Of a stretch of DNA of 44,207 nucleotides, positions 7,848 to 42,843 are shown piece by piece. Each line of letters begins with the position of its first letter. Within the stretch, counting starts at the first letter, position 1. The DNA comes from Nemertoderma westbladi (Eukaryota > Animalia > Xenacoelomorpha). The stretch covers positions 1 through 44,207 of the forward strand of contig JAUCBJ010005380.1 in the NCBI GenBank assembly GCA_032718475.1. Direction: 5' to 3'. The notes beneath the pieces were generated by a model. It did no database searches. It had not been told where the DNA came from and worked only from the letters and a program-made list of their open reading frames with translations. The position numbers and the translations under genes were made by a program.

Positions 7848-8180
7848 GACCACATCATGGAGCGGACAGGGGAAAGATAACAACACAAATAAATATAACC
7901 CTAGTACGCCCAGTAGGCCAAACCCAAACAACAAGAATAATAGGGACTTTGGTGCAAATGCAACTGCGATACGCAATGCACTGTACAAGGACGGCTACAA
8001 CCCAAAGAGCAAATGCCAGCTACATACAAATGCGCTTCATCAAACCATGAACTGCAGTGCAGGTACTGGCAAGCGCTACCCAGGGAAGATCAGGTAGAAT
8101 ACGCGGCGAGGAACGATATCTGCTCGCAATGTGTGATGAGTGGGCATAGAGCTAGGCAATGCAAGGAGACGCCAATTAAG

Positions 8181-11100
8181 TTCGGTCAAAGCAAAGGCCA
8201 AACGATGGCAACGAGCACGGTAGGGGCGAAGAAGAGAGGAACGGTGCTACTTGGGGTAGTACCAGTGCGAGTGATTGGAGAAGGCAATCGATCAGTGACC
8301 ACACTGATGCTGGTCGATAGTGGAGCTGCCTTCACATTAATCGAAAATTGGGTGGCCGAAGAGATAGGATTGAGAACGAGGCCAAGTAGAATGGCGGTGA
8401 CAACGATTTCTAGCAAAGATGAGGTCCTGGAGATGAGGACCGGACGGTGCGCAATTGCAGCAGTGGCACCGGGATGCGACTACGGGGCGACCATCGACCC
8501 CATCCAAGTGATAGAGTCAATAAATATCAATGCCAGGCGACCAACCAACATCGAGGTCAAACAATATAAATTCCTGGACGATATCGACTTCTCAATCCCA
8601 GAGGTGGACGTCAGGAAGGTATCCATCATAGTAGGAATGGACTGCCCGACAGCCCACGAAAGAATGCAAACGGTCTTCGGCGAAGACAAGCAGTGTGATC
8701 CGGTGGCAATATTGACGCCGTTCGGGTGGACGCTGAGTGGCCCAATTAAGAGTAGGATACCATTTAGGATGTCGGAGACATCGGGATGCATGTTCGCGGG
8801 AACTATGCAAGAAATAGGGGATGAGAGAGCGGATAGCGAACAGCTCAAAAGACTGCTCAGGCAAGACTTTGAAGGACTAAAGGAGACCGGGGTAGGAACC
8901 TCGGTGGAAGACAAACAGGCTCAGCAGAGCGTAGAAGAGTCTATGAGATGCGATGAGGGGCGGTATACCATAGGAATGGTATGGAAGCTACAAAAGCTAC
9001 CATTGCCCGATAATAAAGCGATGGTACTCACGAGACTTCGTAAGTTGAAACAGACGTTAAAACGGAGCCCCGAAAAGAATGAGTACATTCACAAAACGAT
9101 CAGAAAGTACGTCGAGAAGGGATGGGCCGTGGAGTTACCGGTCGACGAACCAAACACGGACAGGACATATTACCTGCCACTCCACGTGGCTTTAGATCCG
9201 AAGAAAGGTAAACTGCGGATGGTAGTGGATGCATCGGCAAAGACCGCCGGGAAATGCCTAAACGACTATCTGCTAGAAGGTCCCAACATATACAACTCAG
9301 GGATAGAGGTCCTACTCAGATTCAGGAATGGAAGACACGCCTTTACCTGTGACATTTAAGGCATGTTCAACCAAGTCCGTGTGACGGAAGAGGATAGCGA
9401 CAGTCTACGCTTCCTATGGTACAACGGTGACGTGGAACCGTCGACAATACCGATGTACAAGATGATAGTACAGAATATGGGAGCCAAGTCATCTTCATTT
9501 ACGACGACTATGGCCGTAAGAGACACAGTAAAGGGAAAGGAAGATAAGTACAGCACTAGAGCCGTTGATATGATTCGACGCGGCTTCTACGTAGACGACG
9601 GGATGGAGTCTGGAAATACGGTTAAGGAGCTACTGGACACAGGGCGCGAGGTTCGCGACATCCTTAAGGGATCCGGCTTCAACCTAACCAAATTCCAATC
9701 CAGTTCGAAGGAATTTATCGAGGCGATAAAAGACGAGAGACCAGGATCGACCATGGATAATCCCACAACAGCCAAGGGGCAAGACATGGCGAACAAGAGA
9801 ATAGAGTCTCAACAGAAGGCACTGGGAATCGTGTGGGACAGAGAGACGGATGAACTGAAGTACCAGTTGAGTCAGGAGGGTGCAGATATCCACACAAAGA
9901 GGGGCTATGTGTCGTACATAGCAAGGATATACGATCCCCTAGGCCTAGCATCCCCACTACTAGTCACGGGGAAACAGATACTCAAGAAAGTATACAAGTT
10001 AAAGGACGAGTGGGACGCAGAGGTCCCAGAAGAAATCAGAAAGCAGTGGCATAAGTGGACAGAGAGCCTGGAGCAGATGGGAACATACAGCATGCCAAGA
10101 GTGTATTTCCCGGATGGGGACATGACGAATCTGGACTTACACATGTTCTCCGATGCGTCGTTAGAGGCATACGGAGCGGCACTCTATTTAGTACAATGAG
10201 AAGGGGCTCACAAGCCCAGACTGGCCTTCAGCAAAGCGAAGTCAACGCCGCCAGATTCAGCATCAGTTCCCAAACTAGAATTGACAGCTGCGAGACTAGG
10301 AGTTAGGGCGACAGCCTACCTAGTGGATACTATTCCCAACATAGTGGAGACACTCTACTGGACGGATTCCATGGTAGTGCTTGGTTGGCTACATAACGAA
10401 AGGACGAGATACCCTATATTCGTCGCGAACAGAGTGGACGAAATAAGGGCGACCACAGAACTGGATAGGTGGCACTACTGCCCAACGGACGAGAACCCAG
10501 CGGACTTGTTATCGAGGGGTGTGGTACGCCACACTTTCTTGAAGAAGGAAGTATTGTGGCAACACGGGCCACAGTTTCTGAGCGATAGGGAGGCCTGGCC
10601 ACCGATGAGAAAGGTGGACCCGGGCTCAGGAGAAGTAGTGTTAGAAGGAGAAGAGGGAGATTCAGAGGGAGAAGAGATATATTCCCAGATGGTGAGGGAG
10701 ATTAGGGACGTGCAACCAAAACCAGGAGAACTGTGTGATAACCCGACGGATAAACTCCGTAGCTACAGTTCTAGTTGGTATAAGACCAAGAAATTAGTGG
10801 CGTACTGGAGAGCCTTCGGGAATTTCCTCAGGGGAGTTGGCAAAGACGCGGAGATTAGAACGACAATCGATCTGGAAGGAGCGGCCAAAGCAGTCATCCG
10901 CTACGAGCAAAAGAAGAACTACGGCGACGAGGTGGAGCGCGTCGGTAAACAACAGCATCTTCGGCGGGACAGCGAGTTGATCACGCTGTCACCATAACTT
11001 AATGACGACGGGATCCTAGTAATGAACTCTAGGGTGGGATACAACAACAGTATCGTTGTACCACCGAAGCCCATCATCATCCCCACAGGATCGCCGATAG

Positions 11101-12206
11101 TCCACCAGATTATTTGGGACTCCCACAAGTCGATATTGCACGGGGGCACCAATCGAACCCTCACGGAAATAAGGAGGACCTTTTGGGTCAAACAGTTAAG
11201 GAAGAAGGTAAAGGCGGTAGTGGGGCAGTGCCAGACCTGTCGACGAGCGAAGAAGGAGCGAGCCATACAGGAGATGGCACCACTACCAGCAAGTAGGGTA
11301 AGACAGCACGACCCGCCATTTACGCATTGTGGTGTGGACATGTTCGGGCCGATAAAGATCAAGGTGATGTGGCACACAGAGAAACACTACGGTATTATCT
11401 TTGTATGTAACAACACGCGGGCGGTAGGGATAGAACTCGCCCAAGATGCAACCGCATCGGCATTCATTAATGCCTTAGAGAGGTTTAGAGACCGCAAAGG
11501 TGGGACGATCGCAGTAATATACTCCGACAACGGAACCAACTTTGTGGGAGCAGAGAACGAGATGGCAGAGGCCTTGGACATCTTGGAAGGGGAGGAAGTC
11601 AGGGCAGCCATGAGACGACGACAAGTAAAGTGGGAGAAAAGGACGCCGTATGCACCACATACACTAGGATGCGTCGAGAGACTGGTGGGCAGTTCAAAGC
11701 GTCTCATGACGAAGTTAATGAACACCCATATGGTCACGGAGGACATCTTGAGAACAGTACTTGCGAAGTGTGAGGGTATCATTAATAGCAGACCGCTATA
11801 TCCGGAGAATGACGACCCTGAGTCACTAGATGTGCTGACGCCCAGCCATTTTCTAATGACTGTAGATCCAGATGACATACACTCCCGCCAGAGTTGGAAA
11901 GTCGCTAAAGCGATAAGCGCAGAGTATTGGAGGAGGTGGGTTGAGGAATACCTACCCACGCTTCACAAAAGAAGCAAGTGGAGGAAGTCGAATAGGGAGT
12001 TAAGAGAGGGAGATCTCGTAATCGTTACGGATGATACTATCATCAACAACCAGTGGCGGTTGGCGAGAGTTGTAGGCACTTACTCCGATGGGGACGGAAG
12101 AGTCCGATCGGTAGAAGTGCGGATAGGTGGCAAGATAGGTGCGAAAGACAGGAAAACCTACAGAAGGGCTGTAGGGAAATGCTGTCTTCTAGAGGGAGCA
12201 CCTTAG
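8181..12206 (+). pseudogene. pol: BEL-1 pol (PR-RT-RNase H-IN) with in-frame stops
   Basis: ORFs 8013-9359, 9363-10199, 10281-10997 and 11022-12206 share one frame and are separated by single stops. BEL signatures include YLPLH, LNDYLLEGP, RIYDPLG, WHYCPTDENPADLLSRG and YWRRWVEEYL. Confidence 0.92.
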
Positions 12207-12247
12207 TATAGAGCTTGAGAGGAGTTTAGTCGTCCAAATTTTGGACT

Positions 12248-12260
12248 GAAGGGGGTGGGA
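12248..12260 (+). promoter_or_regulatory. Polypurine tract of BEL-1
   Basis: GAAGGGGGTGGGA lies just after the pol stop and 1 nt before the TG that starts the LTR. Confidence 0.75.
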
Positions 12261-12261
12261 T

Positions 12262-12919
12262 TGAGGGCGAGACGCCCTTCCCACACAAAAAATAAAATAA
12301 AAAATAATAAAAGATAAAAGTACATAACTAGGTACGCAGTAAGTAGGCAGATAGAAGTTAGATAGTAAGAGTAAGAGGGTACGTAGTACCGTTAGTTAGT
12401 TAAGAGTGTTATATAGTAAGAGTAAGAGGGTACGTAGTACCGTTAGTTAGTTAGGAGTGTTAGAAGAGTAAGAGTTAAAGGGTATGTAGTACCGTTAGTT
12501 AGAGAGAGTAAGAGTTAGAGGGTACGTAGTACCGTTAGTTAGAGAGAGTAAGAGTTAGAGGGTACGTAGTACCATTAGTTAGAGAGAGTAAGAATTAGAG
12601 GGTACGTAGTACCGTTAGTTAGAGAGAGTAAGAATTAGAGGGTACGTAGTACCGTTAGTTAGAGAGTTAGTAAGAATTAGAGGGTACGTAGTACCGTTAG
12701 TTAGAGAGTTAGTAAGAGTTAGAGGGTACGTAGTACCGTTAGTTAGTGAGGAGTTAGAAGTTAGTAAGAAAGTACGTAGTACTAGTTAGTAAGAGATAGA
12801 GGTAGAAGGGTATATATAGTATAGATATTAGTCAGTATTTAGTAGCGAGAGGGGGGCATATGAGTACAGCTGGATAAATCGTGTAGGCCGCGCGACGCAT
12901 ACTGTTGTACTGTTGTACA
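12262..12919 (+). repeat. Putative 3' LTR of BEL-1
   Basis: Starts TG after the PPT. TATATATA at ~12811. Ends ...TGTTGTACA, where LINE-coding sequence begins. The right boundary is inferred because there is no second LTR to compare. Confidence 0.6.
12366..12790. repeat. ~38-43-bp tandem repeat inside the BEL-1 LTR
   Basis: About 10 copies of (GAG)TAAGAGTTAGAGGGTACGTAGTACCGTTAGTTAGA with small indels. Confidence 0.9.
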
Positions 12920-13090
12920 AAAAAATAAGTAAGAATAAAGATAACCCTAAAAGTCTATGGTCTACCCTAAAATCTTTAGGTTATAAAAACCTTAAATCGA
13001 AATCGAATATTGTTCTGCAAGATAACGGTGAGCTGATTCATGATCATACTCTAGTTAGTAATTTATTTAATAATTATTTTACTAATGTTC
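12920..13090 (+). mobile_element. CR1/L2-like LINE ORF2 fragment (EN-RT linker)
   Basis: NKDNPKSLWSTLKSLG...LVSNLFNNYFTNV resembles the usual linker before LINE RT. Probably the target into which BEL-1 inserted. Confidence 0.65.
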
Positions 13091-14688: not shown

Positions 14689-15157
14689 TTACTTCCCAGT
14701 ATAGGACTGACTTGGTACTTCCGATTTACAATTACGTAATCGGTCAATGTTTACAAATAAAATCTTATCATGTGGCTTGTCAACCAATCTTATTTCTGCA
14801 TTATTGGCGACAATTTTTAGAATTCTATAAGGCCCATGAAATGGCCTAGTGAGTTTATGATACTTTCCTTTCACCAAATCAGGTCGGTGAAGGAACACCC
14901 TATCTCCGACTCGATATGTTACTGATTTACGTTTTTTATCAAACTGTTCCTTATATTGCACCTGCGCCTTATTTATGTTGCGTCGTGCAATATCCCACGC
15001 CGTAGATAGATGATCTGACAACTCAGTTCTATAATCATCCAAATCCACTTGATAGACTGTCCGAGGTCTATTCAAAGCCGTTTCGGTTGGCAATCGGGCA
15101 TCCCACCCATATAACAAAAAAAACGGCGATTCATTTGTACTAGAGTGTTGTGATGTT
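14689..15157 (-). pseudogene. pol: Gypsy integrase C-terminal part (GPY/F)
   Basis: Removing BEL-2 and one TSD copy gives in-frame YRT-SQHSSTNESPFFLLYGWDARLP...KLTRPFHGPYRI. Confidence 0.92.
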
Positions 15158-16380
15158 TGTTCGCGCTTTCAGACCTTTGGCAGTTTAACCCGCCAAATTA
15201 GGATGTCTTCTAGATAATAAATCACCTTTAGCCTATGACAAGTATTTAATTCACTACACTAGTCGAAACCAATCTGTGCGCGATCATTCACCCGTTGGAT
15301 ATACCCGGGAGATTGGGTTCGACGGCTTAATTTTATTGCTATGTAAGCCTAATGTATTATTCGACTGACAGTATTATATAATCTCTGACAATATTATTCA
15401 CTTTCGGGAATTATTAACAGTTCCTTTAGGACGTGGCGCTCTATCTATATAAACAGAGTTATGACTTAAACTACTCACAACGATATGGCTTAGTTACAAT
15501 TCACATATATGGCGCATTCTTTAGGAAATGCTTCGTTATCAGTCTCACTCATACACAATGCTGCACAATACTGCACACTGATCTGCCGATCTTCACTGAT
15601 TTTAGTCACATATAAAAGGAACACAGACCGAATCATGTAGGGTCTATCAAATAACATTAGATTCACTTCAAACCACTCAACATAGGTCGCAATCATTTAT
15701 CTGTAACCTTTCTCTCTTACCTTCGGTATATCAAGAATATTGGGTTTTCGGGGTTATTTGTCGTTATTCCAAATATAATAATTCATCAACCATATTATGA
15801 AGAACTGACAGTAAATAGCAGTATAACAATATAAAAGTATGCACAGTGTTACACAGTATGCAGTGTATGCAGTACTGCAGTATGCAGTATGCAGACATCA
15901 GTCATCAGACATCAGTTACGTTTGCAGATAACGGATATATGTCCTTATAATTAAGCCTACTAGTGTAGGACTAAAAACTGAAAACACGGAGGTGCCAAAA
16001 GCCGGTTCTTAGGCTCTGGGCAAAACATAACACTGAACTACTGAGTTTCTGTATACACCTCCAACACAGAGACAACAAACGCTCTGATTGGTCAACCTGA
16101 ACAACGAGAGAACAAAGAAACAAAGAAACGTCGACGTGGCAATATCAGCTGCTAGCCGTCGTCATGGTAGCGACACTGTTTTCAAGAGTATCGAGCTTTT
16201 ACGTCACGGAATTACGGATTATGTCCTCTAAAGTACAAATACAGAAGAAATAGCTTTTATGTCCGCTAAAACACCAGTACAGCAAGGACACGGCCTTTTT
16301 ATGCCTGGTAAACCAACTACAGAGTATTTTACGGGAAAAATAAGGAAAAATAACCGGACAATTCAGCAAAAGCTTTTACA
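15158..16380 (-). repeat. BEL-2 3' LTR
   Basis: Matches 25946-27175. The only difference I noticed by eye is one fewer 7-bp GCAGTAT unit. Confidence 0.96.
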
Positions 16381-19300
16381 CCGCTCCCAGAAAATGGGAT
16401 TTTCAGTCTATAAAATATAAAAATCACAGTTTCTAAAACATAAAGATACTCTAAACAGTTAGTCTTTCTTACGCAGACGGCGTTTACGCAGTTTTTTGAG
16501 GCTAGCAAGAGTCTTTTTCTCTTTGGGGGGAGCCACTTTACTAGGAGGGCCATAACTCCTGGGTGAAGGGTGCAATATGATTGCATCAGAAGGTGTAGGA
16601 TTGTGGTCGAGGTATCTGCCGTTTCGATATGCTTCTCCTCGAGCTGATTTTCCTCCGCTCGTAGCTGGATACGTTCATCCAAAAACTCTCGCAGAGAATA
16701 AGATCGTCCAAGTTCGATAACTTCTTAGAGATTCTGGATTTCCCAATCGAATTGAGATAAGGCCAATTCATTTATCGATTGGACTTACTGTTATAACTTA
16801 CGTTTATCTGAACAAACGCAGGTTTCCTTTTTGATCTTTATAGAATAGCGTTTAACTCATTTCGTACAACGCTCTCCTTCACCTTGATGAGGTGTTGTAT
16901 CGCATTAAACGTGGACGACCATACGGTTGGATAGTGATATTAGGTGTCCGCGTCACAATCCGGCTAGGTAAGATGGGCGGCTAGCTAGAAATCACTGTCG
17001 GAGTGTTACCGATTAATTGTTAGGGTAGCACTAGATCTTTGAACAGTGAATACAGTCCGCGAGGATCCGCGACACCACCAGGATCGCAGGTCTGAGGTCC
17101 AACTAAGGAATGAGGAGGTTTGACCGAGTATTCCGGGACTCTGATCGTAGGTTTACTCCAGGATCGTTCGAGCCGAGTGAGCATAGGTGATACGTCAACA
17201 AGTTTCGGTTTACGTGGATGTTTATGTCTTTCCGTTTATTAGTTGGGTCTAGGGCATTTATCGTAATAATACCAAAGACGCACGTCTGGTAGGGTAAACG
17301 CGGGTGATATTTATTTGTTGTTACAATGCTTCTATCAAGAATTCCAAATATACGTTGGAGTTACCGCGTCCATTTGTTTCTTTAGTGTCTTTTCTTTCGA
17401 GTCGATTTCGAACAGAATTTTCGCATTCGAATTTCCGTTTATGGTTCCGACTCCGCTGGGCAGGATATATAGTCGACATAGTCCGTATTGTGTAAATCGA
17501 TAGGATGACCAGTAGTTAAGAAGCCCATATACATACCATTACGCCGCGTATATCGAGCAGCGAATTTTCTATAGTCCAACTCGCGCGAGCTGCTCTTGGG
17601 ACATTGGCGGTTCGATATAACGACCATCGTCCTCCGCAGCAGTTGGACTAACGTCGCCGCGTATTAAGCTATCAACAAACGCTTGTAAAAGTAGAGTATA
17701 TCGCTCCCCGATACCAAGACCATCTTCTATCAACTCCGTCATATCTGCTATATATGAGTTTATCCATATTATAATGAGTTTATATTTAGGCGAGCGGGCG
17801 TCACTGCCTACCCCAATCAACCCCGGACAGTACGAGATCCTCAGCGCCGATGTGTCGTCGCCGCTGTACTTTCGCCAACGACGTAGCCGCACAACGACAA
17901 CGACAACCGGCACAAGTCACTCAACTGTCCGTCCCAAAGGCTTAGATGTACTTCAGGTTTTCCTTGGAGAGTTAGGTTACTTTTACGATTGCGACTAGCT
18001 ACTGTAAACACACCTTAGCAGTAACATTCACCTATAAACTCACAAATACCACACAACTGGTCACAACTACGCACATTTGGGCCATTTGTCCGTTAGTCAA
18101 TGCCTTCCAGAATGTCACTGTATTATTATGTATCCTTGGATACTAGTAGTGCGCTATTTATTCCCTATGCTATTCAATGGGACAAGCTTTCTATTGTTCG
18201 TTTAACTCAATTCTAATTCTAGCGTGGTTGTTGCTATGGTGACATTATGCAAAGCTAGCGGTAGAATTAGAGTAATTCCAATGCATACAGATCTGGGATG
18301 TTATTTAATAGTATTCTTTAATAGTCAATGTTCGGTTTTATACATGACTTTATGAATTTTATCGGCTATTGACTATGTTTGGGAGACTTTCGCACACTCA
18401 TAGGCATAATAAGATAAATCTCCGCTCCCTTTATCTATTAATTAATGGAATTTTGGGAATGTTATAAATTGCGCAAAAATGGCAATTTATTAAATTCATT
18501 AAAAGGCATGAATTTAAATTATTCCCTGAAATTTTATTATTTGATAATTAAATGGACATATTTTGATTCTAGAATATGTCTGGGGACACAAGATCCTTAA
18601 TTCTATGACAATTGTCTTTTTAAGAATATCGGTAAATGCTACGATATCTTAATTGACTAGAATTGTTGAAGGATCTGAATTTACAGATTTTGATTTATTA
18701 GATTTGCAAATATTAAATAATTAATATTTGAGATGGGCACCAATTTATTCCAGAACTTGTCTGGGGACGTTAACCACTGATTCTAGAATTTGTCTTTCAA
18801 GTATATCGGTGGGTGCCGCGATATCTTAATCGACTAGAATTACAGATGGTCAAAGGGTTTAACAGATTTATTTTGCGTGATACGCTACTGTTAAAGGGAC
18901 ATCACGCTACTATATGTATTATTTAATATACGGTATGAGAGCAATATCGCACGAAGCAATGTCAGTGTGAAGAGGCAAGTCGTTTCCAAGGTCTACCCAG
19001 AGCTTGGTTTAGCCGAGACACGAGGATCTGAACTTTGCATTCCTAATACTCTGCCTACCAATAATACTTTAATATAGTAGTGGCTTTATTGTACTTTAAT
19101 AAGTACGGACATTTCATCTTACTGTAGTCACGTATTTATAATATGATACGGACAGTAAGGAAAGAGGAAAAGAATTATTTCTTGCCGTCGCATTAAATAT
19201 AATATATACGTAATTAAGTAATAAACGCGAATATATATTGCACTAATCTACTAAATAATCGCTAAAATAACATTCTACTGAATAAAATTAAAGAAAACGA

Positions 19301-19406
19301 TTATAATAAAGTTACATAGTAATACATACAGAAATATAAAATAATAAAATAATATAAAATAATAGAGTCACACACCCACTCCATATGTTGTTACGTTATG
19401 GAGTCC

Positions 19407-20750
19407 CTAGATGTTTGAAGGATTAGGGAGGTGGTCGTGGGAAGAGAATCTTGCCTTCCACAGTTTCCGGAGTCCTCTATTCCCTTCCGGTAAACACAAA
19501 CGACCGACTGGGTGATTGAGTCGCTGCATCCCGAATACAGTTCCAGGTTTCCTCTTCGTCCTGGAATAGTGACGATAGAAACATCGCTCTAGGTACACGA
19601 CGGCCTTACAAAGCCGATTCCAGGAGCTATAGTGGTCCGTCGCTCCCTGCAGGAGAGGTGAGAGTCCCTGCGAGACGTCTGATGTTCCAGAGCTCCAATC
19701 GCTCTCTCTGATCTTCATGAAGGATCCACTCGCGGTGGGGAGGTCCAGATCCACGGCGTCGTCCCTGGCAATATGTAATACCGACAGATCTATCCCGGGT
19801 TCAAATAACTCCGCTCCACCCGTCCGGGTTTTTGGTTTGACTTTCTCCGCTCCCTTGGCTGGTCTAATCTCAGTCGGAGTAAGATGGGGAGGCCATTCAT
19901 CCTCCTTACTCAGGAAGTCGGGTTCACCTAACCGGTCTGTAGTATCTGTCAGTTCTTGAGGAGTTGCTCCTCTGGAAGCGATGTCGGCTGTATTCATCGT
20001 CTTGGGGCAATATCTCCATTGATCTACATTGGAGTTAAGATTGTCATTATCTGAGGAGTGTGGTGTTCCCTCAGTTGTGTCGTCTCCCTCACTAGTATCG
20101 TCTTCCCATTCACTCACCTGGCAGACGCGATCTTGAAGCAGTCTTTCCCTGAGCGTTCTACGGGAAGGTCCAGTAAGGTACCAACCTACTCTAGTTCTTA
20201 CCGCATAGGTCTGAAGTGGTTGCGGTTGAGTAGGTCGTTTCTCTAATGTCTCCAGCGCCTCATGCGCGTTTTGGCCGATGAGTATTTGCACTCCAGGATA
20301 ATCAGTCTGGAATCGAGGTATCTTAAGATGTTGGATGCTCTCATCCTCGTCCCAATTATAAAGGTCTGCTTGAGTAGTAGCGAAGTTCTTTATTGCCACC
20401 ATTTTGACTGACCTTATACTGTGTTCTCCTAGTTTATCCTGTGGAGTGGACAACTCACCTATATAATAGTCGGCAGCCACAGCAGATTTCCAAACCTGCA
20501 TGATCCCTGACATGTTTAGCTTGGTTCGGAACTTGGGTTGTCCAGCAAAGATGTCTTCGGCTAGTTCTTTATCGATGAATGTTCCCGTGCTGCCGGAGTC
20601 CAGGAGGGCGTTCACTATATAGCTCTTCTGAGGTCCGCGGACCCGTAACTGGACTACAGGAAATTCTCGGGTTCCTATATTGGAAGTTGGCGCTTTCCAA
20701 GATGGTTGTTGATCGGAAGTAGTTAAGGTAAGGTCGCTGTCTGTGTCTTT
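19407..20750 (-). CDS. pro: BEL aspartic protease fused to residual pol fragments (RT, most of RNase H and IN missing)
   Basis: In frame with gag after a single TAG. ALLDSGS, ILIG, GWYLTGP, then WRYCPKTMNTADIASRG, YSSWNRL and HPVGRLCLPEG. Confidence 0.8.
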   Translation of the reverse strand, partial: KDTDSDLTLTTSDQQPSWKAPTSNIGTREFPVVQLRVRGPQKSYIVNALLDSGSTGTFIDKELAEDIFAGQPKFRTKLNMSGIMQVWKSAVAADYYIGELSTPQDKLGEHSIRSVKMVAIKNFATTQADLYNWDEDESIQHLKIPRFQTDYPGVQILIGQNAHEALETLEKRPTQPQPLQTYAVRTRVGWYLTGPSRRTLRERLLQDRVCQVSEWEDDTSEGDDTTEGTPHSSDNDNLNSNVDQWRYCPKTMNTADIASRGATPQELTDTTDRLGEPDFLSKEDEWPPHLTPTEIRPAKGAEKVKPKTRTGGAELFEPGIDLSVLHIARDDAVDLDLPTASGSFMKIRESDWSSGTSDVSQGLSPLLQGATDHYSSWNRLCKAVVYLERCFYRHYSRTKRKPGTVFGMQRLNHPVGRLCLPEGNRGLRKLWKARFSSHDHLPNPSNI

Positions 20751-23700
20751 CTAATGCACGAGTACTCGATACACTGCGGTGGTGTTTATTAGGTAACAGG
20801 ATTCGTTTTGGTCGGAGAACTCGTCCGTATAGAATCCTTCCATCTCAGATTGATCAGTGTCGTTCACATCACTGAATTGGACATGTAGTTCGGACTCACT
20901 TACCTGACTCGGGCTGTTTCGTTCGAATTCCGTGTGCAACAAGATATGATGTTTTGCGCCGCACTTTGCACACCTTGCGTCGGAGTTACAGGTTCGCCGT
21001 TGGTGTCCTCGTCTGAGGCAATTATAACACAACCGCTTATCCCACATGACTTCACGTCTATCCTCGAGTGATTTCCTCAGGAATTTATCACACGCATTTA
21101 AACGGTGGGGCCCATCGCACAGCACACATTTCGGCTTGATGTTACTTACCTTAACCTGTGCTATGTGGTGCACACTTGTTCTTTCCTCGGGCTTTCTCAC
21201 CTGAATTCTTTTAGGAGACGTAGGGGGGGTTTTTTGTACCGGTTCCCTTCTGTCATTGGGTCGAGACTTGAATTTACTTACCTGGTCTTTAGGCGTTTTG
21301 TTGTTGTAGTAAGATCTCTCAGTGTCTTTCCCGCTATCCTCTCCTTGAGAAGTCTGGCTTTCGCCGTCGTCTGTATAACACACTGGTGTTACCCTTCTCC
21401 TAGAAACGGGTTTCTCACTTACCTTGTTTTCCAGTGTCTTCTCTCTGGATTGCCTTAGGAGCTGTAATTTCACTTCTCTATCTAAGAATGACATGAGATC
21501 AGCCATGGTAGGGTCTCGTCGTTGTTGTTCCATCATATATAACACTTTCTTGTCCCAGCGTGTGCCTACTCCACCCTTGGGCAAAGTAGATGCTAGGGCT
21601 CCTACAACCATAGAATTCTGGTATTCATGAGACTTACCTAACCAATCTAGTTGTCTACAGATCTCCTGAATCTCGTCGGAAAACTCTATAATCCCGCTGC
21701 TAAGAAACTTTCGGGGCGCCATTAATTTCGCATATAAATACCTAGCTATGTTAGTCCTATTACCATACCTGATGTTTAGTGTATCCCAAACTTGTCTTAA
21801 TCCATCTGGATGTCCAATAAATTTTAACGCCATTAACTTGGGAGATCCTTCCAAGCACTCGATGAGGTATCTAAGTTTTTCTCCATTAGATAGTACAGAG
21901 TTCTGTATGTTATCTTTGTAATATTCATTAAAAGGTAACCATTTCATCTCATCTCCATTGAACTTGACGATCTCTCCCACCTTTACCGCTTGCCGGGCTT
22001 CGGTTCTAGCCATTTGACGCGTAAAACTTTCTTGGGCCATCGTGTTATTTAATATCGAATTATCGGTATATAAATTTCTCGGATGATGATCAGTTCTATA
22101 GGGAATATCATTATCAACAGGTCTATAATTACCCTTAATAGGGTTCACTATAGGAGTTTCTACTTCGCTAGCAGTATATATGCGTGTAGGCTCCACACCT
22201 TGCGCATGCGATACTTCAGACCTAACAGGTTGACACATTGTTACAGAGGGTGGTGGTATACCCCTTTGTGTATTTACTAATTTATCGCGTTCAAGCGCGA
22301 TACTTTGCTGCACTTCTTGCAACTCTAGCCTACTTTCCCTTACTGTGCCCTTGAATTGCTGGACAGTCTCCTGCATCTGCCCGAGCAGGATATCCATCCC
22401 CCGCCGTCTCTCGTCCACCCATTCGACCGCCGAAGCGGGAGTCGCCAACGTTGTAGCGGGCGGACGAGGGACAACGGGCGACAAATTGTGAATATTTCGC
22501 TCGGAGTCCAGGGTATGCACTGTCTCATGGAATGTTCTGCTGGGCACAGGTAGCTTAGTGCTGTGCAAAGGGAATTGAGAAGTAGGTTCAGGGAGTACAG
22601 GTGTCTCTACGACCGAAAGGGTAGCTTCGGGAACAGGCCTAATTATTTCAGGCTCATCTACTATAGTAGGGAGTCTCTCTATTGTAATTATTTGGTCTGT
22701 GGGTTCTGTACTACCTACTTTGGTGTTATTTAGTTGCCTTCTAACAGCTGGAGGCAAATCAGGCAATTTCTGACGGTGGAATGTTCTTTTACGTCTGCTT
22801 AGGCGAGATCGATTTCCTCCGCCTTCAGTGTCGGTGGTATCGCCTTCCTCAGATGATGTATACCCCTGTCTCTTGGGAGTAGATCGACTCATCATCTGCA
22901 TATTGCTCGCTGTTAACTGTTTATTGAAGTTGTCTTGCTTCTCTTGAAGAATTTCCAACTCTAGTTGGGTTGCCTCTTCAGATGCCCTCCGTTCTGCTTC
23001 TACCACTGCCTCTGCTATTGCCAGTGCCGCTTTTCTTTCGGTTTCTGCCGCTGCCTCTGCTATTGCCAGTGCCGCTTTTCTTTCGGCTTCTGCCGCTGCC
23101 ACTGCTGCTGCCACTGCCGCTGTCTTTCTATCTTCTATACGTTTTTTCTTTACTTGTTCTTCTTGTTCTCTAGCGATGCGGAGTTGTTCATCGAATTTAG
23201 CTTGGTTCGCCGCTAACATTTCCGCATCGATGGCATCCAACACAAGCTTGGTTCCTTCACTATTAGGGCTAAGTCCCTCTAACCTTCTCCTCAACTCGTC
23301 ATCACCTAAAAAACGTTGATAGTCTGACAGATAGATGTCAATGGCATCCCTCTTATGCGGTTTCTCTGCCGTCGCTTCGCTTTCTTCTTGAGAAGAAGTG
23401 GCGTCTGTTGATTCTTCATAGGTTGTCCGCTCATCATAAACCTTATCCGCCATCTTCGCTCCGTGCTCGGGCGTCCGCTCAACAGTATCCGAACTACTGG
23501 AGCTGTCGGACCGCTGAGAAACAAGTTCCTGGCTTGCGGGTTGTTGCTGTTCCGCTGCTTCTTGGTCTCGCTTGACCTGAGGTCGAGTGCCTATGATAGA
23601 CCTACGATGTTGGACCAGCCTCGGTTCTGTTATTAATACTGTAGGGATGGCCTTGCTTACAGTAGGAGGGGACTTGGACTTTGGTCTCAGACGCTCTATA

Positions 23701-23798
23701 CTCTTAGCTGAGTCCCAGATCTTTTTAAGACCCTGTCTAACACTCATTCTAGCACTTTCTAAGAGGCTATCTGACAATGTTTGTGGTGAGTCAGACAT
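20751..23798 (-). CDS. gag: BEL/Pao Gag, 1015 aa, intact
   Basis: Coiled-coil N-terminus, DUF1759-like KFNGDEMKWLPF...KLRYLIECLEG, and the BEL-typical triple knuckle CX2CX3HX4C / CX2CX4HX4C / CX2CX3HX4H. Confidence 0.92.
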   Translation of the reverse strand: MSDSPQTLSDSLLESARMSVRQGLKKIWDSAKSIERLRPKSKSPPTVSKAIPTVLITEPRLVQHRRSIIGTRPQVKRDQEAAEQQQPASQELVSQRSDSSSSSDTVERTPEHGAKMADKVYDERTTYEESTDATSSQEESEATAEKPHKRDAIDIYLSDYQRFLGDDELRRRLEGLSPNSEGTKLVLDAIDAEMLAANQAKFDEQLRIAREQEEQVKKKRIEDRKTAAVAAAVAAAEAERKAALAIAEAAAETERKAALAIAEAVVEAERRASEEATQLELEILQEKQDNFNKQLTASNMQMMSRSTPKRQGYTSSEEGDTTDTEGGGNRSRLSRRKRTFHRQKLPDLPPAVRRQLNNTKVGSTEPTDQIITIERLPTIVDEPEIIRPVPEATLSVVETPVLPEPTSQFPLHSTKLPVPSRTFHETVHTLDSERNIHNLSPVVPRPPATTLATPASAVEWVDERRRGMDILLGQMQETVQQFKGTVRESRLELQEVQQSIALERDKLVNTQRGIPPPSVTMCQPVRSEVSHAQGVEPTRIYTASEVETPIVNPIKGNYRPVDNDIPYRTDHHPRNLYTDNSILNNTMAQESFTRQMARTEARQAVKVGEIVKFNGDEMKWLPFNEYYKDNIQNSVLSNGEKLRYLIECLEGSPKLMALKFIGHPDGLRQVWDTLNIRYGNRTNIARYLYAKLMAPRKFLSSGIIEFSDEIQEICRQLDWLGKSHEYQNSMVVGALASTLPKGGVGTRWDKKVLYMMEQQRRDPTMADLMSFLDREVKLQLLRQSREKTLENKVSEKPVSRRRVTPVCYTDDGESQTSQGEDSGKDTERSYYNNKTPKDQVSKFKSRPNDRREPVQKTPPTSPKRIQVRKPEERTSVHHIAQVKVSNIKPKCVLCDGPHRLNACDKFLRKSLEDRREVMWDKRLCYNCLRRGHQRRTCNSDARCAKCGAKHHILLHTEFERNSPSQVSESELHVQFSDVNDTDQSEMEGFYTDEFSDQNESCYLINTTAVYRVLVH

Positions 23799-25114
23799 GT
23801 TTGATTGTACAGTTGAATGCCTACTGCTAGATTACAGTCTGAGCAAGTCTAGTAACTCAGTATTAACTGCTAGCCTAGTAATTAATTACCGGTACTGCTA
23901 CTCAGTGTAGCGTGATATATATAATATATTAGAATACCGGTATGCTTATAGTATATATAACTATTATTACAGACTAGGTTTATCACCGAATACCGGTATA
24001 ATTTTAGCACAAATATATATAATATATAATAGGCCTATCTGCAATACCGGTATACAGCTTACAGTTTGTAGGATATATAATTCTGAAATAGAATTAATTA
24101 CAAGTACTGGTATAATTTCAGCCTAGATTTATAGAAATAAAGATAATAGGCCTATCGTAAATACCGGTATATCAATTATTTCAAATAATTGAATTTCTGT
24201 TACTTTAGGGTTACTTTGTTACTTTACTTACTTTATTACCGTTATTTGAGCAGTAGTCCAACTGATATGGAGACCTAGTTGTTATATGGTAGGCCTACTA
24301 TTTATAAATCGTTAGATTTGATTTATAATATATATATACCCGTTTTAATGGGTTTAGTCAATGTTTGAAATAAATGTTATTATTTCTGGGGTAATCACTA
24401 CACAAAGCAGTGCGCTTTTAGTGAAGTGTTACGTATAGGACACTAAAACAAATAATACTAATTTACCTAAGTTACTTAGTACTACAAATTACGTACAATT
24501 CGGGTGAGATTACAATCTCTAAATAAACACAAAAATTTACAAAACACAAATACGAATTTTTAGGGTAATTTTACAAGAAGTCTACAAACCAGCCTAACAA
24601 AGGGTTAGAATACCGGTTATTACAACGGACAGGGTACTACGGTGTTTTGAAATAATAAGTAGTAGTAAATACACTGCGTTGTCTAGATAGGAAAATACCA
24701 CCGCCTGACGACCTATAGCCGTATCGCTATAGGTTCTACGTTATGTATCACGGAGTGTTCCTACCTAGAAGTTAATAGAGCTAATCGAATGTGCCTATCA
24801 ACCACTTTACAACACAAATATAATGCCTACACTAATTACTTCGGAAAGTACTGTACACTAAACCCTAAATTAGGTATGAGTACTTGCATAACAGATAATC
24901 AGTAGTTAAATATACTTGAACAGCTAAAAGAACCACGGCATCTGCTGGAGTGACCGATGCACAAAATCACCAGTCTTTACCTACGCCGAGCAGCCCGTGT
25001 AGTACCGGGGTTAATTTAACTATAGCGGTATGTATAACAAACACAATTACTGTAGGAACAAACTTGGGGAATGAATGTTGCGGATAATCGCATAAACTCT
25101 GAATAATAAATATT

Positions 25115-25672
25115 ACGCTACGCGTACAAACTACTCAAACAAAATACAGACCGAACACTGACAGACTACTATCAAGCCTAAACAAACTACGGTATATGCA
25201 GACTCCGAAATGATTAGGGAGTATGCGCTCTAACCCAGTAGTGCGACTTATTCTTTAGTTGGGGGTTTACCTTACAGCATTCGCTGCCCCTACTGCCTAA
25301 CCGTACTTAATCGGACAGATGATCTACACACGCGGCAATCCGTTCAGACCTAATAACAGCCAGACAACTATCCAGCCTACAAATTATCTAAATAAAATTA
25401 TACGCTACCCGTACAGACTTACACAAACAAAGTACAGACTAAACGATGGCAGACTACTCTCAAGCCTAAATAAACTACAGGACATGCAGACTCCGAAATG
25501 ATTAGGGAGTATGCGCTCTAACCCAGTAGTGCGACTTATTCTTTAGTTGGGGGTTTACCTTACAGCGTTCGCTGCCCCTACTTCCTAATCGTACTTAATC
25601 GGACAGGTGATCTACACACACTGCAATCCGTTCGGACTTAACAGCAATCAGACAACAGCTCAGCCTACAAAT
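25115..25672. repeat. 288-bp direct duplication in the BEL-2 5' UTR
   Basis: GACTCCGAAATG at 25201 and 25489. Identical ~83-bp core with diverged flanks. Confidence 0.92.
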
Positions 25673-25933
25673 CGTCTGTACAATCTGATCAGGTTTACAC
25701 GCCTTCTGTTCAATACTGGCCTACAAATAAATAAAACTTGACAGAAATAAGTAAAAATCTCAATAAAAAACCAGGGCTGCAGTCCCTGATTAATTATTAA
25801 GGCCTACTGGTATATAATAATCAAAATCGAATAATACTGCTGTAGGTACCGGTCCGGATGATCAGGCAGTCAGGCCTACTGGTTACCGGTCGACCGGTAC
25901 TTTCGACTTTATTGCTTACTGCAATAAAGAAGC

Positions 25934-25945
25934 TATATCCGTTAT
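25934..25945 (-). promoter_or_regulatory. Candidate self-complementary primer binding site of BEL-2
   Basis: The 12 nt right after the 5' LTR read ATAACGGATATA on the sense strand (no TGG). They are the exact reverse complement of the sense-strand LTR sequence at 26723-26734. Confidence 0.6.
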
Positions 25946-27175
25946 TGTTCGCGCTTTCAGACCTTTGGCAGTTTAACCCGCCAAATTAGGATGTCTTCTA
26001 GATAATAAATCACCTTTAGCCTATGACAAGTATTTAATTCACTACACTAGTCGAAACCAATCTGTGCGCGATCATTCACCCGTTGGATATACCCGGGAGA
26101 TTGGGTTCGACGGCTTAATTTTATTGCTATGTAAGCCTAATGTATTATTCGACTGACAGTATTATATAATCTCTGACAATATTATTCACTTTCGGGAATT
26201 ATTAACAGTTCCTTTAGGACGTGGCGCTCTATCTATATAAACAGAGTTATGACTTAAACTACTCACAACGATATGGCTTAGTTACAATTCACATATATGG
26301 CGCATTCTTTAGGAAATGCTTCGTTATCAGTCTCACTCATACACAATGCTGCACAATACTGCACACTGATCTGCCGATCTTCACTGATTTTAGTCACATA
26401 TAAAAGGAACACAGACCGAATCATGTAGGGTCTATCAAATAACATTAGATTCACTTCAAACCACTCAACATAGGTCGCAATCATTTATCTGTAACCTTTC
26501 TCTCTTACCTTCGGTATATCAAGAATATTGGGTTTTCGGGGTTATTTGTCGTTATTCCAAATATAATAATTCATCAACCATATTATGAAGAACTGACAGT
26601 AAATAGCAGTATAACAATATAAAAGTATGCACAGTGTTACACAGTATGCAGTGTATGCAGTACTGCAGTATGCAGTATGCAGTATGCAGACATCAGTCAT
26701 CAGACATCAGTTACGTTTGCAGATAACGGATATATGTCCTTATAATTAAGCCTACTAGTGTAGGACTAAAAACTGAAAACACGGAGGTGCCAAAAGCCGG
26801 TTCTTAGGCTCTGGGCAAAACATAACACTGAACTACTGAGTTTCTGTATACACCTCCAACACAGAGACAACAAACGCTCTGATTGGTCAACCTGAACAAC
26901 GAGAGAACAAAGAAACAAAGAAACGTCGACGTGGCAATATCAGCTGCTAGCCGTCGTCATGGTAGCGACACTGTTTTCAAGAGTATCGAGCTTTTACGTC
27001 ACGGAATTACGGATTATGTCCTCTAAAGTACAAATACAGAAGAAATAGCTTTTATGTCCGCTAAAACACCAGTACAGCAAGGACACGGCCTTTTTATGCC
27101 TGGTAAACCAACTACAGAGTATTTTACGGGAAAAATAAGGAAAAATAACCGGACAATTCAGCAAAAGCTTTTACA
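25946..27175 (-). repeat. BEL-2 5' LTR
   Basis: Matches 15158-16380. The minus strand has CCAAT (~26882) and AATAAA (~26121) candidates. Confidence 0.96.
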
Positions 27176-27908
27176 ATGTTCTATAAGCAAACAATACACA
27201 AGGCAACACCCGATCCCAATCGTTATTGTGTCTGTCAGCTATTTTGGCTAACATGTCTAACAACGTTCTGTTAAAACGTTCTATCATTCCATCCGTTTGA
27301 GGGTGAAATGCACTAGTATTAATTTTCCAAATCCCGCACAAAACGCACACAGATAAAAATAAATCAGACAAAAAGTTAGTACCTCTGTCTGATAACAGCT
27401 CCCGAGGTACTCCATGCCTGCCAATAAAATCTATGAAACAATTTGCTACTGTCTCCGCTTTTTCATCTGGTACCACATATGCCTCAATCCATTTTGTTAA
27501 ATAGTCTCCAAATAAAATACACTTTTTATTACCCAGTTCCGTTAATGGTAAAGTTAAAACATCAACAGCTACTCGCTCAAATGGGCCCCCAACCGGTAAA
27601 GGTTGAAGCAAAGGCTTCTGCCCACGCCCAGGATTCCTCGTAGCACATTGCAAGCAACTGTGACACCAATGAAAAATATCAACCCGCATACGTGGCCACC
27701 AATATTGTAATCTTAGCACACTCCAATCTCTATGATCAGAGAGATGGCCAGCAAATTTACCCCCATGAATTTCATTCAATAACTTAAATCTCCACTCCTT
27801 TGGGACAGCTAAACGCGGCTGCCGAAAATCAACATTATCTTCTACTTTATATAAAACACCGTCAATTAGAGTGGTATTATCAGAATTAGTTTTTACAAAA
27901 TCTCTCAT
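27176..27908 (-). pseudogene. pol: Gypsy integrase N-terminal part (HHCC and DDE core)
   Basis: HGGKFAGH...CLQC, VAVDVL, SDRGTNF, HPQTDGMIERFN. Cut at LFAYRT by the BEL-2 insertion. Confidence 0.93.
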
Positions 27909-27959
27909 CTTTTTGTCACTGGGTACTATTTTAGATACATGAAAATCAATAAGTGCACG

Positions 27960-29310
27960 TTAATCAGAATCAGTATACTGTAACTCTTTCAATAATTCCG
28001 TCTCCTGCCGTAACTTTTCAAAAGACTCACATATATTTGAGCTAGCACAAATACCGTTTTGGTTGCTAGTAGCAACCGGAATTCTCGAAAGAGCATCAGC
28101 ATTACCATTTGCTTTGCCCGGCCGATGAAAAACATGATCAGGATTAATATACTCATTGATATTAAATACCCACCGCGCTAATGGACCGGTTAATTCAGTA
28201 CGCCCACGCAACAACCCCTTAATAGAAGCGTGGTCTGTATAAACAACATTACTACTTATTCGACCATATAAGTATGTACGAAAATGATTACAGGCCCAGT
28301 TCAAACCCCATAATTCTAGATGAGGCGCACTGTACCTACGTTGTGCGTTATCAATATGTTTAGACGCATATGCAATGGGATGTAACATCCCATCACGATC
28401 ACAAATTTGTGATAAAATTGCACCAAAACCTATTTCACTCGCATCTGTTTCCAAAATAAAAGGTTTATCAAAATCTGGATATTCTAGAACTGGTGTGGAT
28501 ACCAACCGGTTCTTTAGTTCCCAATATGCCAAGCGAGTGGAATTGGTCCAGACAAATACAGTATTTTTCCGTAACAGTTCGTATAAAGGTTTAGCAATAC
28601 TTCCATAGCCCTCAATAAAACGTCTATAATAGTTTGTTAACCCTAGAAAACCTCTAAGTGTTTTAAGGTTATGGGGCTCCGGATAATTCAGAACTTTATC
28701 AGTTTTTTTAGGGTCCGGGCTAATACCATTTCTAGAAATGATATGACCCAAGTAATTAGTTTGAGACTTAAAAAAGGTACATTTCCTTACTTTGGGTTTT
28801 ACCTTTTTGGTTAATAACTGTTCTAGAATAAGTTTTACGTGGTTTAAATGGCTAATAAAGTCATCCGAGTTAATTAATATGTCGTCAATAAATACGTTAT
28901 ATGGATTTTTCCCTACCACACTAATACCCCGCAACATTTTCTCCATAGCGCGTTGAAAAGATGCCGGAGCATTACATAACCCGAAGGCTAACACAATAAA
29001 TTCATAAAACCCTGACGAACAAGTGAAAGCTGTTTTGGGAATATCATCATAGGATAACGGAATTTGCCAATATCCCATGGCTAAATCTAGGGAGGTAAAG
29101 TACTTTGAAGAACGCAAACGGTCCAATATAGGATAATTATCTTTGACCGTGTAACTATTCAACTTCCGGTAGTCTACGCAAAACCGAACAGACCCATCGG
29201 GTTTCGCTGCTAGTACAATTGGGGAAGACCACGGACTCTGAGATGGCTGAATCACCCCCAAATCTAACATTTTCTTTATTTCCTTGGCCACAATTGCCTT
29301 TAATTCGTGG
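27960..29310 (-). pseudogene. pol: Gypsy RT-RNase H
   Basis: SPWSSPIVL, RFCVDYRKLN, LDLAMGYWQI, FGLCNAPASFQR, FIDD, ETDAS, TDH, ADALSR. An apparent short deletion at YP|ILDRL and a frame break before IN. Confidence 0.93.
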
Positions 29311-29422
29311 TGTAAGCCCCCGTTTGCCGTACCCACCGCTATCATGAAGTAATCAAATAATCTCTCAATCTAATATAATATATAATCTTCTTCCATGGCC
29401 TACTCTGTATCATATCCTTACA
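29311..29422 (-). repeat. Gypsy 5' LTR (112 bp)
   Basis: Identical to 14340-14451 and joined directly to RT-coding sequence. Confidence 0.95.
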
Positions 29423-40323: not shown

Positions 40324-42843
40324 TTAGATTGCTGGTCTTGCTACGTTAAGTGGGGGGTTGTATGTATAGATTAGGTTAGCTTCCGTCGCTAGTAGTTCGG
40401 GTATGTTTGTGAATTGTTTTATGGTTGCGGTGCGTAGATTTTCTAAACCACAACCGTATATGTGCCTAGCTAGGAGTATGTCTTCGTGTGTTTTTCCGTC
40501 ATTGGCTCGTGAGGGGTAGTGTCGTATGTTGTTGCGGTGTCCATTAAAGCGTTCGTGAAGTTTCTGTCTCGTTTGGCCTATGTAGTATAGAGTAGGGTGG
40601 CAGTGGCACCAGGCCAAGTAACATACAGTGTGGGACTTACATGTATAGTGTCCTTTTATCTTTTCACCCCATGGTGTCTGTTGTATGTTAGTGATAGTTT
40701 TGCATGTAAGGCAGCGGCTAGAGTTACATGGCTCATTAGTGGTGTTATTTGTGTGTGTTTGCGATTGAGTTTTATTTTTGGTTAGTATTTGTCCTAGTGA
40801 TGTGGGGTTCTTCGTGACTACATTAATGTTGATGTCAAGATCGTAGTTTTTGGAGTATCTACGTACAGTATTTTGGAATATGCCCTTCATCTGTTGGTTA
40901 GTGGATAGGTAAAATGTGGGTTTCGAGTTAGTGTCTTTAGGTCTAGTTTGGGGAGTCCAATGTCTAAGTTTGTTAAGGAGGTTCTGGGGGTACTGCCTGA
41001 GTAGACATTCGCCAAGGAATTCGTCTCTGAGTTTGGTATAGTCGTTAGACTCGCTACATCTGCGGTGGATGCGTAGGAGTTGGCTACGAATTACGGATAG
41101 TAGTAATTTCTTATCATGGAAGCTATTGTAGTGAATCGGGAGTTTATTGCTAGTTGGTTTTTTGTATAATGTAGTTGTTAGTGTTTCGTTGTTAATCTGT
41201 GTCAAGACGTCAAGGAATGGGAGTGATGTGTGGGAGTATTCAATGGTGAATTGTATATCAGAGTTTTGGAATAAGTCGTTACAAGCGGAGTTAGTGATTT
41301 TCTGTATGTTGTGAATGTCCTGTTCACTTAATATACGTTGTACTATACCATAGCTGTCGTCAACAAACCGTTTGTAGAATGGAATAGGGTAAGTTGTATT
41401 ATCGTCTGGGGGGGTTATGTTTGGATCCGAGGTTGAGGTAGTTTCGTTAGTTATGGTTATATTAGGATCTGAGATAGATAGGATAGTTTCTGGAATATTG
41501 ATGTTGGAATCAGGAGGTGTAAGGTTAGATATTGGGGTCGTTATTATTGGATCTGAGAAAACGGGGTTAGGTGTAGTGTTTGGTGCTAGTTTAGTTTTAT
41601 AAGTTACTGAGGTAGTTATATTATTACAGACTGGGGTGGAAGGGGTAGGTTCCGGGGTAGTTATATTAGTTCCAGGGGTAGTTATGTTAGTTTTGTTAGT
41701 TTCAGGGGTATTTATGTTAGTTCCATGGGTACTTATGGTAGTTTCAGGGGTAGTTATGTTAGTTTCGTTAGTATCAGGGGTAGTTATGTTAGTTTCATGG
41801 GTACTTATGGTAGTTTCAGGGGTAGTTATGTTAGTTTCGTTAGTTTCAGGGGTAGTTATGTTAGTTTCATGGGTACTTATGGTAGTTTCAGGGGTAGTTA
41901 TGTTAGTTCCAGGGGTAGTTCTGTTAGTTCCAGGGGTAGTTATGTTAGTTCCAGGGGTAGTTATGTTAGTTTCAGGGGTAGTTATGTTAGTTTCGTTAGT
42001 TTCAGGGGTAGTTATGTTAGTTTCGTGGGTACTTATGGTAGTTTCAGGGGTAGTTATGTTAGTTTTAGGGGTAGTTATGTTAGTTGCAGGGGTAGTTATG
42101 TTAATATCAGGAGTAGTTATGTTAGTTTCATGGGTAGTTAGGGTAGTTTTGGGGGTAGTTATGTTAGTTTCAGGGGTGGTTGTATTAGTTACATGGGTAG
42201 TTATGGTAGTTCTGTGAGTTTCAGGGGTGTTTTTGATAGATTTTAGGGGAGTTATACTAGGATTATATCTGGTCTTGTTAGTAGTGTTGGGATCAGTGGT
42301 TGTTGAGCTCGGGTTGGTAGGGGTGGTTAGATCCAGATCGGGTGTGTTAGTATCCAGGTTAGTTGTGTTAGGGAGTCTGTTTGATACACTCGCGTTTAGG
42401 TAGTTATTAATGGGGTTGTTCAGGATGTGGAGGAAGTGTATCTCTAATCTAGATATGGTTAGGCTAGCGTAGTTTTTCGAGAAACTGCTACCCATGGCTG
42501 CGCCTCGTAATTGAAGGTATAGTGTGTTATCAAAAGTGAAGTAGTTATGTTCAAGTATAAATCGGACGAGTAGTATAAAGTTATCTAATGAGATGAGTGT
42601 TTGTTGTGTGAAGTGCGTGTCCTCGGAGAGTGCTTGTCGTAGTGCCCTACATCCTACATCATGGGTAATGTTAGTGTACATGTCTACTACGTCCAGTGAA
42701 ATCAGAGTGCAGTCGGGTCCAATATCTCTAGGGAGGGCTGATAGGAAGTCGTCTGTCCCTTTCAAGTTAGACTCCAGGCGAGTGACCGCGGGTTCTAGAA
42801 GGTCGTTAGCAAAGCGGGAAAGTGGGTGTAGAAGGGTGCCCAT
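40324..42843 (-). CDS. Penelope RT plus GIY-YIG endonuclease with a Thr/Pro/Asn-rich insertion
   Basis: Uninterrupted 839-aa frame. The N-terminal continuation lies in another frame upstream (frameshift at ~42875). Confidence 0.88.
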   Translation of the reverse strand: MGTLLHPLSRFANDLLEPAVTRLESNLKGTDDFLSALPRDIGPDCTLISLDVVDMYTNITHDVGCRALRQALSEDTHFTQQTLISLDNFILLVRFILEHNYFTFDNTLYLQLRGAAMGSSFSKNYASLTISRLEIHFLHILNNPINNYLNASVSNRLPNTTNLDTNTPDLDLTTPTNPSSTTTDPNTTNKTRYNPSITPLKSIKNTPETHRTTITTHVTNTTTPETNITTPKTTLTTHETNITTPDINITTPATNITTPKTNITTPETTISTHETNITTPETNETNITTPETNITTPGTNITTPGTNRTTPGTNITTPETTISTHETNITTPETNETNITTPETTISTHETNITTPDTNETNITTPETTISTHGTNINTPETNKTNITTPGTNITTPEPTPSTPVCNNITTSVTYKTKLAPNTTPNPVFSDPIITTPISNLTPPDSNINIPETILSISDPNITITNETTSTSDPNITPPDDNTTYPIPFYKRFVDDSYGIVQRILSEQDIHNIQKITNSACNDLFQNSDIQFTIEYSHTSLPFLDVLTQINNETLTTTLYKKPTSNKLPIHYNSFHDKKLLLSVIRSQLLRIHRRCSESNDYTKLRDEFLGECLLRQYPQNLLNKLRHWTPQTRPKDTNSKPTFYLSTNQQMKGIFQNTVRRYSKNYDLDININVVTKNPTSLGQILTKNKTQSQTHTNNTTNEPCNSSRCLTCKTITNIQQTPWGEKIKGHYTCKSHTVCYLAWCHCHPTLYYIGQTRQKLHERFNGHRNNIRHYPSRANDGKTHEDILLARHIYGCGLENLRTATIKQFTNIPELLATEANLIYTYNPPLNVARPAI
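41655..42180. repeat. 21-bp-based coding minisatellite (ETNITTP)n in the Penelope RT
   Basis: TCAGGGGTAGTTATGTTAGTT units with 9-bp inserts and higher-order variants. The reading frame is preserved throughout. Confidence 0.92.

Follow-up and report, generated by a model that had tools for sequence, protein, structure and literature searches.

The window analysed here is a stretch of 44,207 nucleotides from contig JAUCBJ010005380.1 of Nemertoderma westbladi. It contains, on the minus strand at 15158-27175, an LTR retroelement whose PBS (primer binding site) complements a segment of its own LTR. The features of the element are the following, with positions counted in the window.

27176-27180, minus strand: upstream copy of the target site duplication (TSD) AACAT; the second copy is at 15153-15157
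25946-27175, minus strand: 5' LTR, 1230 nt, TG...CA
26723-26734, minus strand: candidate unspliced self-primer, exact complement of the PBS of the window copy; its copy in the 3' LTR is at 15928-15939
26259-26727, minus strand: 469-nt GT-AG stretch within the LTR, a candidate intron on prediction only and with weak signals; its first ~130 nt are highly variable among copies
26254-26258, minus strand: the first five bases past the candidate acceptor, which after 26734-26728 complete a sequence complementary to the majority PBS
26120-26125, minus strand: AATAAA, likely poly(A) signal
25949-26071, minus strand: long U5 stem enclosing a hairpin at 25964-25985 and stopping three bases before the PBS; prediction only
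25934-25945, minus strand: PBS, flush with the LTR end and without TGG; the majority allele of the sister copies differs at 25941 and 25945
25907-25929, minus strand: perfect 9-bp leader hairpin immediately after the PBS
20751-23798, minus strand: gag, an open frame that encodes DUF1759 and three Cys-His knuckles and stops at TAG
19407-20750, minus strand: protease (DSG) joined directly to a short RNase H end; neither RT nor integrase is present, and most of RNase H is missing
16459-17916, minus strand: broken 3' reading frame without Pfam match
16381-16388, minus strand: purine-rich tract adjoining the 3' LTR, candidate polypurine tract (PPT)
15158-16380, minus strand: 3' LTR, differing from the 5' LTR by a single 7-nt indel, located in a short repeat

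The alignment of the two LTRs contains no substitution and a single 7-nt indel, and AACAT is present at both ends of the insertion, which interrupts a Gypsy integrase frame. The near-identical LTRs and intact TSD of the original prediction are thus confirmed; the element also has TG...CA ends and a candidate polypurine tract. The gag region matched DUF1759 (PF03564, E 2e-13) in a profile search, and the triple Cys-His box and the DSG protease were read from the translation; such a gag and protease are hallmarks of Pao/BEL elements according to the accessible part of PMC554778. In a tblastn search with 15 long BEL polyproteins the protease region (around residue 720 of P0041) was followed within ~130 nt by the RNase H end (around residue 1260), and neither RT nor integrase found a match in the element. 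What is left of pol is a short RNase H end matching BEL polyproteins, and with RT absent the element has no placement in an RT tree. Judged by its proteins, the element is of BEL/Pao descent and not a member of the Tf1/sushi group. Because RT and integrase are missing it is non-autonomous, and since its LTRs match, the window copy would have been mobilised recently by an autonomous partner. The recent transposition proposed earlier cannot have relied on the element's own enzymes.

The protease frame runs on in the same frame past the gag stop codon (TAG, 20751-20753, minus strand), which could be a site of read-through or a lesion; stop-codon read-through has been reported for Tj1 (PMC4600332). 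The broken 3' frame at 16459-17916 (minus strand) showed no Pfam match in three frames; it has a basic stretch at its end, just before the PPT, and may be the remnant of an extra gene. An AT-rich stretch at 18380-19383 (minus strand) carries TATA and AATAAA motifs and is possibly a 1-kb insertion; it is flanked by a 6-bp repeat, of which 2 were found in 762 tested pairs, near chance. The leader of 2.1 kb contains at 25098-25672 two tandem copies of ~288 nt that are 87.5% alike.

Immediately after the CA of the 5' LTR, at position 25945, begins the 12-mer ATAACGGATATA. Its complement begins at LTR position 442 (26734-26723, and 15939-15928 in the 3' LTR) and pairs at 12 of 12 bases. The 146 nt that follow the LTR contain no TGG, and the 18-nt tRNA-type PBS of the BEL/Pao description is not present; the element is for this reason a poorer fit to the ICTV description, and its protein-based descent is not affected. 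These observations agree with the original prediction on the exact complement, its place flush with CA and the lack of TGG. It had also put the chance occurrence of the complement at 7e-5 by assuming uniform bases; a first-order Markov model of the LTR gives an expected count of 2.3e-4. None of 3000 dinucleotide shuffles of the LTR contained the complement, and of 9540 internal start positions 2, the PBS among them, reach 12 nt of complementarity to the LTR. By a published criterion, self-primers have a complementary stretch of 10 bp or more that begins within 0-5 nt of the LTR end (PMC6317226); the window copy shows 12/12 at offset 0. A TGG-starting stretch ~40 nt inside the LTR end was considered as a PBS and rejected, being present in both LTRs. 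No tRNA gene was found in the 44,207-nt window and no Rfam match in 15100-27300.

If transcription starts at 26734, a CCAAT box lies at -152. There is no TATA box at -30, as noted earlier; TATAAG occurs at -10 and an Inr-like motif, TCAGTT, at -42. The predicted probability of pairing between PBS and primer is 0.85-1.0 for 5' ends from 26740 to 26734 and 0.77-0.91 for a 5' end at 26774, inside the Inr-like motif. It declines to ~0.5 at 26780, 0.2 at 26790 and 0.15 at 26800. Flanking duplexes of the Tf1 type are not beyond chance, since 31 and 130 of 300 shuffles reached duplexes as good as the best ones.

The LTR was found in six public runs from four studies, none of them recorded as RNA and the best of them perhaps the source of the window, and four of these (X1, X3, X4 and X5, all as contigs) were examined; our guess is that X4 is RNA. 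Summed depth over the LTR reaches 10^6 against ~100 on the flank, a measure of abundance in contigs and not a copy number, and the element family is very abundant. The depth collapses at the 12-mer, from 138,412 at 26720-26723 to 16,417 and then 1,355 in the two bins that follow in X1, and from 82,489 to 6,707 and 677 in X3. It is here that the LTR block shared among copies stops. Loose ends lie at 26720-26722, and among the 17 of 32 alignments listed at least four contain the aligned 12-mer and then unrelated sequence. A short-repeat tract begins at this edge of conservation and may itself break contigs, thus adding to the collapse. X3 and X5 have one contig each with a single-base variant of the primer that keeps a G-U pair with the PBS of the window copy; the bases on either side differ. 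The join between LTR and leader is common to many copies in the four runs.

The PBS itself is not uniform among the sister copies. The change at 25941 accounts for 318,181 of 463,687 in X1 (69%), 189,036 of 295,449 in X3 (64%), 16.6 of 22.3 in X4 (74%) and 0 of 20.9 in X5, and the change at 25945 for 66%, 53%, 74% and 0% of the depth in the same order; these shares come from the 40 of 177 variants listed, and smaller variants may be hidden. One contig of X4 bears both changes. Most sister copies therefore carry a PBS with two linked differences (64-74% of depth in three of the four runs). Against the contiguous LTR site this majority PBS has two mismatches, one of them at the 3' end of the primer, and it is left with 7 stacked pairs and an unpaired primer end (-7.3 against -13.3 kcal/mol). 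The original prediction of tRNA-independent self-priming is supported by the position, the exactness, the predicted pairing, the Tf1-like start of the PBS and the edge of conservation, but the majority PBS breaks the contiguous pairing. Loss of complementarity in relatives, which had been named beforehand as evidence against self-priming, is thus seen in part, as the two mismatches are real but the majority PBS matches a predicted exon joint.

In X1, X3 and X4, unlike X5, the window-type U3 reaches only ~1/5 to 1/3 of the depth of R/U5; its depth tracks the share of the window-type PBS across the four runs. In one X4 contig (depth 15) the part 26614-27104 is replaced by other sequence. Because of the low U3 depth in X1, X3 and X4 and of this replacement, the majority subfamily probably has a different LTR middle, and this may hold a contiguous partner of the majority PBS.

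Both PBS alleles share seven bases that pair with 26734-26728, and the partner of the remaining five is, in the window copy, the beginning of the candidate intron and, in the majority, that of the next exon. The joint 26734-26728 + 26258-26254, which would arise by removal of a 469-nt GT-AG stretch (26727-26259), is exactly complementary to the majority PBS (-11.6 kcal/mol). Only one GT/GC-AG joint in the LTR of the window fits this PBS. Among the 594 double-change neighbours of the 12-mer, three are made by any GT-AG joint in the LTR, and 15 of 3000 shuffled LTRs yielded a GT-AG joint for the majority PBS; with the donor held fixed, a downstream AG followed by the right five bases occurred in 240 of 3000 shuffles. 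The joint test was run on the window LTR only. The candidate donor (CC|GTTATC) is weak, and so is the acceptor, which has little pyrimidine tract. The 26258/26728 joint was absent from the 15 of 16 contig joints listed, where a first exon of 7 nt would escape listing; neither spliced RNA nor LTRs lacking the intron appeared among these joints. At the second base after the acceptor, variants make up 14% of the depth in X1, 17% in X3, 70% in X5 and 60% in X4. The values of X1, X3 and X5 are those expected if this base were unconstrained only where copies use the window-type PBS; that of X4, in which the majority PBS dominates, is not. The predicted strong-stop DNA would measure 777 nt with an unspliced primer and 308 nt with a spliced one. 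The predicted exon joint resembles the donor consensus of minor-spliceosome AT-AC introns, probably by coincidence. Inside the candidate intron a canonical donor (AAG|GTAAGA, 26508, minus strand) and a pyrimidine-rich acceptor (26593, minus strand) are seen. An internal exon of 85 nt, and splicing by more than one route, may therefore exist in the LTR.

It is likely that the family uses self-priming of some form, independent of tRNA. In the mechanism that we propose, transcription would begin at 26734 or up to ~40 nt before it, and the 5' part of the element RNA would fold back onto the PBS. The RNase H of an autonomous partner would then cut after the 12th base, as in Tf1, and RT would extend the 3' end of the primer through U5 and R. 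In the majority subfamily the primer would be joined by removal of the 469-base LTR intron. Since each cycle would rewrite the PBS as a copy of the primer, a single round with the other form of the RNA could change both bases together. The LTR would keep its intron because the intron part is copied from the unspliced 3' LTR. On the sequence comparisons at hand, an unspliced primer in the window copy and a splice-built primer in the majority subfamily is the reading that we favour, by slightly better than even chances. The wider proposal can be made tentatively and falls somewhat short of even: one BEL/Pao family could hold both states of a priming splice switch, spliced in the majority and unspliced in a sister subfamily that has switched, and the genomic PBS would record the priming RNA of the ancestor.

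All the evidence for self-priming in the window copy applies equally if both subfamilies prime in the plain manner of Tf1, without splicing, the LTR middle of the majority carrying a contiguous complement and the GT-AG match being coincidental. The weak splice signals suit this alternative. So does the U3 depth, which, by tracking the share of the window-type PBS, means that the LTR middle of the majority is unseen; two X3 contigs of low depth (60 and 64) moreover lose their alignment at 26724, as a contiguous majority partner would. However, the two PBS differences land on a GT and on a 5-mer adjacent to an AG in the part common to all copies, with the frequencies of 3/594 and 15/3000 given above. 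Nor was there, among the 17 of 32 alignments listed, any variant of at least 2% at 26727 or 26723, or any loose end at 26728, changes near contig ends being unlisted. On balance, plain self-priming in both subfamilies is unlikely, at around one chance in four.

Priming by a host RNA, either a tRNA half or another small RNA, with the fold-back pairing as a regulatory switch or a by-product, would have a parallel in the half-tRNA priming known in Copia lineages (PMC6317226). It is improbable, since no single host RNA can be exactly complementary to the two PBS alleles, for each of which the LTR can supply an exact partner; in addition, neither PBS 12-mer occurs in the seven supplements of PMC13524379, which hold the 12-nt tRNA 3' ends used as PBS and 3' ends only. 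Equally improbable is that the trait does not belong to BEL/Pao, the LTR-PBS module having come from a Tf1/sushi-type Gypsy element that captured a BEL gag-protease, or the PBS being a relic of template switching: the Tf1-like PBS start, the lack of an autonomous partner in sight and an AT-rich LTR-like stretch near 19380-18900 after the pol remnant would agree with it, but self-BLAST found no second, nested LTR pair around the BEL part, the internal frames scanned contain no Gypsy domain, and the LTR-leader join occurs in many copies of four runs, unlike a one-off relic.

Returning to self-priming with an unspliced and a splice-built primer, its nearest known counterpart is the Tf1/sushi group of Ty3/gypsy chromoviruses. 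Self-priming has been shown for Tf1, where RNase H cuts between bases 11 and 12 (accessible part of PMC7175516), the PBS at the end of the cDNA is made by copying the primer (accessible part of PMC11042837) and two duplexes flank primer and PBS in a 'pretzel' (accessible part of PMC10085805). It has been proposed for Tj1 (PMC4600332) and Tf2 (PMC5341516). Like Tf1 and Tf2 of Schizosaccharomyces pombe, Tj1 and Tosmo1-3, the present element has a PBS directly after the CA of the LTR, complementary to an LTR segment of 11-12 nt, and its first five bases are those of Tf1 (accessible part of PMC11042837). It differs from this group in its BEL/Pao gag and protease, its animal host, its non-autonomy and the ~780 nt that separate primer and PBS, with flanking pretzel duplexes no better than chance. 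The hallmark of the group, a Ty3/gypsy chromovirus pol with a chromodomain integrase, is absent, and the coding remains are BEL/Pao. The second PBS allele matching an exon joint is without counterpart in the accessible parts of the sources on that group.

The element shares with Belpaoviridae (BEL/Pao, Semotivirus; PMC8742986) the LTR size, the DUF1759 gag, the triple Cys-His box, the DSG protease and the Pao-type RNase H end. The family profile describes an 18-nt PBS for host tRNA-Arg or tRNA-Gly and a poorly understood replication (PMC8742986); the present element has neither this PBS nor RT and integrase. Self-priming has also been predicted outside Tf1/sushi, in the Tcn1 clade and in the plant Ty1/copia TAR lineage (Houba, Osr-1), by the same criterion of LTR-PBS complementarity (PMC6317226). 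Those elements belong to other superfamilies and hosts, and the accessible part of PMC6317226 describes no splice-built primer in them. BEL/Pao self-priming or a splice-built primer was not found in full-text literature searches, a scope outside which lie most subscription papers, Repbase reports and GyDB. There is no case of BEL/Pao self-priming in the accessible parts of PMC3601003, PMC6934838, PMC2864245, PMC13524379, PMC5443660 and PMC8220671, and the words primer, PBS and tRNA are absent from PMC3118150. The present family adds a pair of PBS alleles, one fitting the unspliced RNA and the other the RNA predicted after splicing. If self-priming holds, BEL/Pao would be the third LTR superfamily with this trait, BEL/Pao elements without a detectable PBS would be explained, and such elements could do without host tRNAs and escape silencing by tRNA fragments. 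If the splice switch holds, host splicing would gate retrotransposition at the priming step. The two natural PBS alleles make both claims testable.

Relatives were sought by several routes. A motif scan of metagenomes gave 10 loci with matches of only 18-24 nt, which were judged to be chance, and scans of genomes and viruses for the motif gave no match. Protein-based scans of viral contigs confirmed none of 49 and none of 13 candidates. In protein sets, no close relative of Gag was seen (2 matches among 1762 candidates). Distant Gag matches numbered 5713, the best 150 at 26-49% identity and without DNA context; some are from arthropods, sea urchins and abalone.

The window contains other repeats as well. 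The Gypsy RT-RH-IN element that served as the insertion target lies at 14689-15168 and 27171-29369 (minus strand) and is flanked by 51-bp satellite arrays. A second BEL/Pao element at ~4240-12990 (plus strand) is unrelated to the one described here and has a broken pol and insertions at ~5620-6020 and 6660-7850; because it is without 5' LTR and PBS, it provides no control for the primer site. A near-perfect array of a 62-bp satellite occupies 1-4230. At 40324-42876 (minus strand) is an open frame of 850 amino acids that by eye resembles a Penelope-type RT with a GIY-YIG end, and a long in-frame Thr/Asn-rich repeat lies in its middle.
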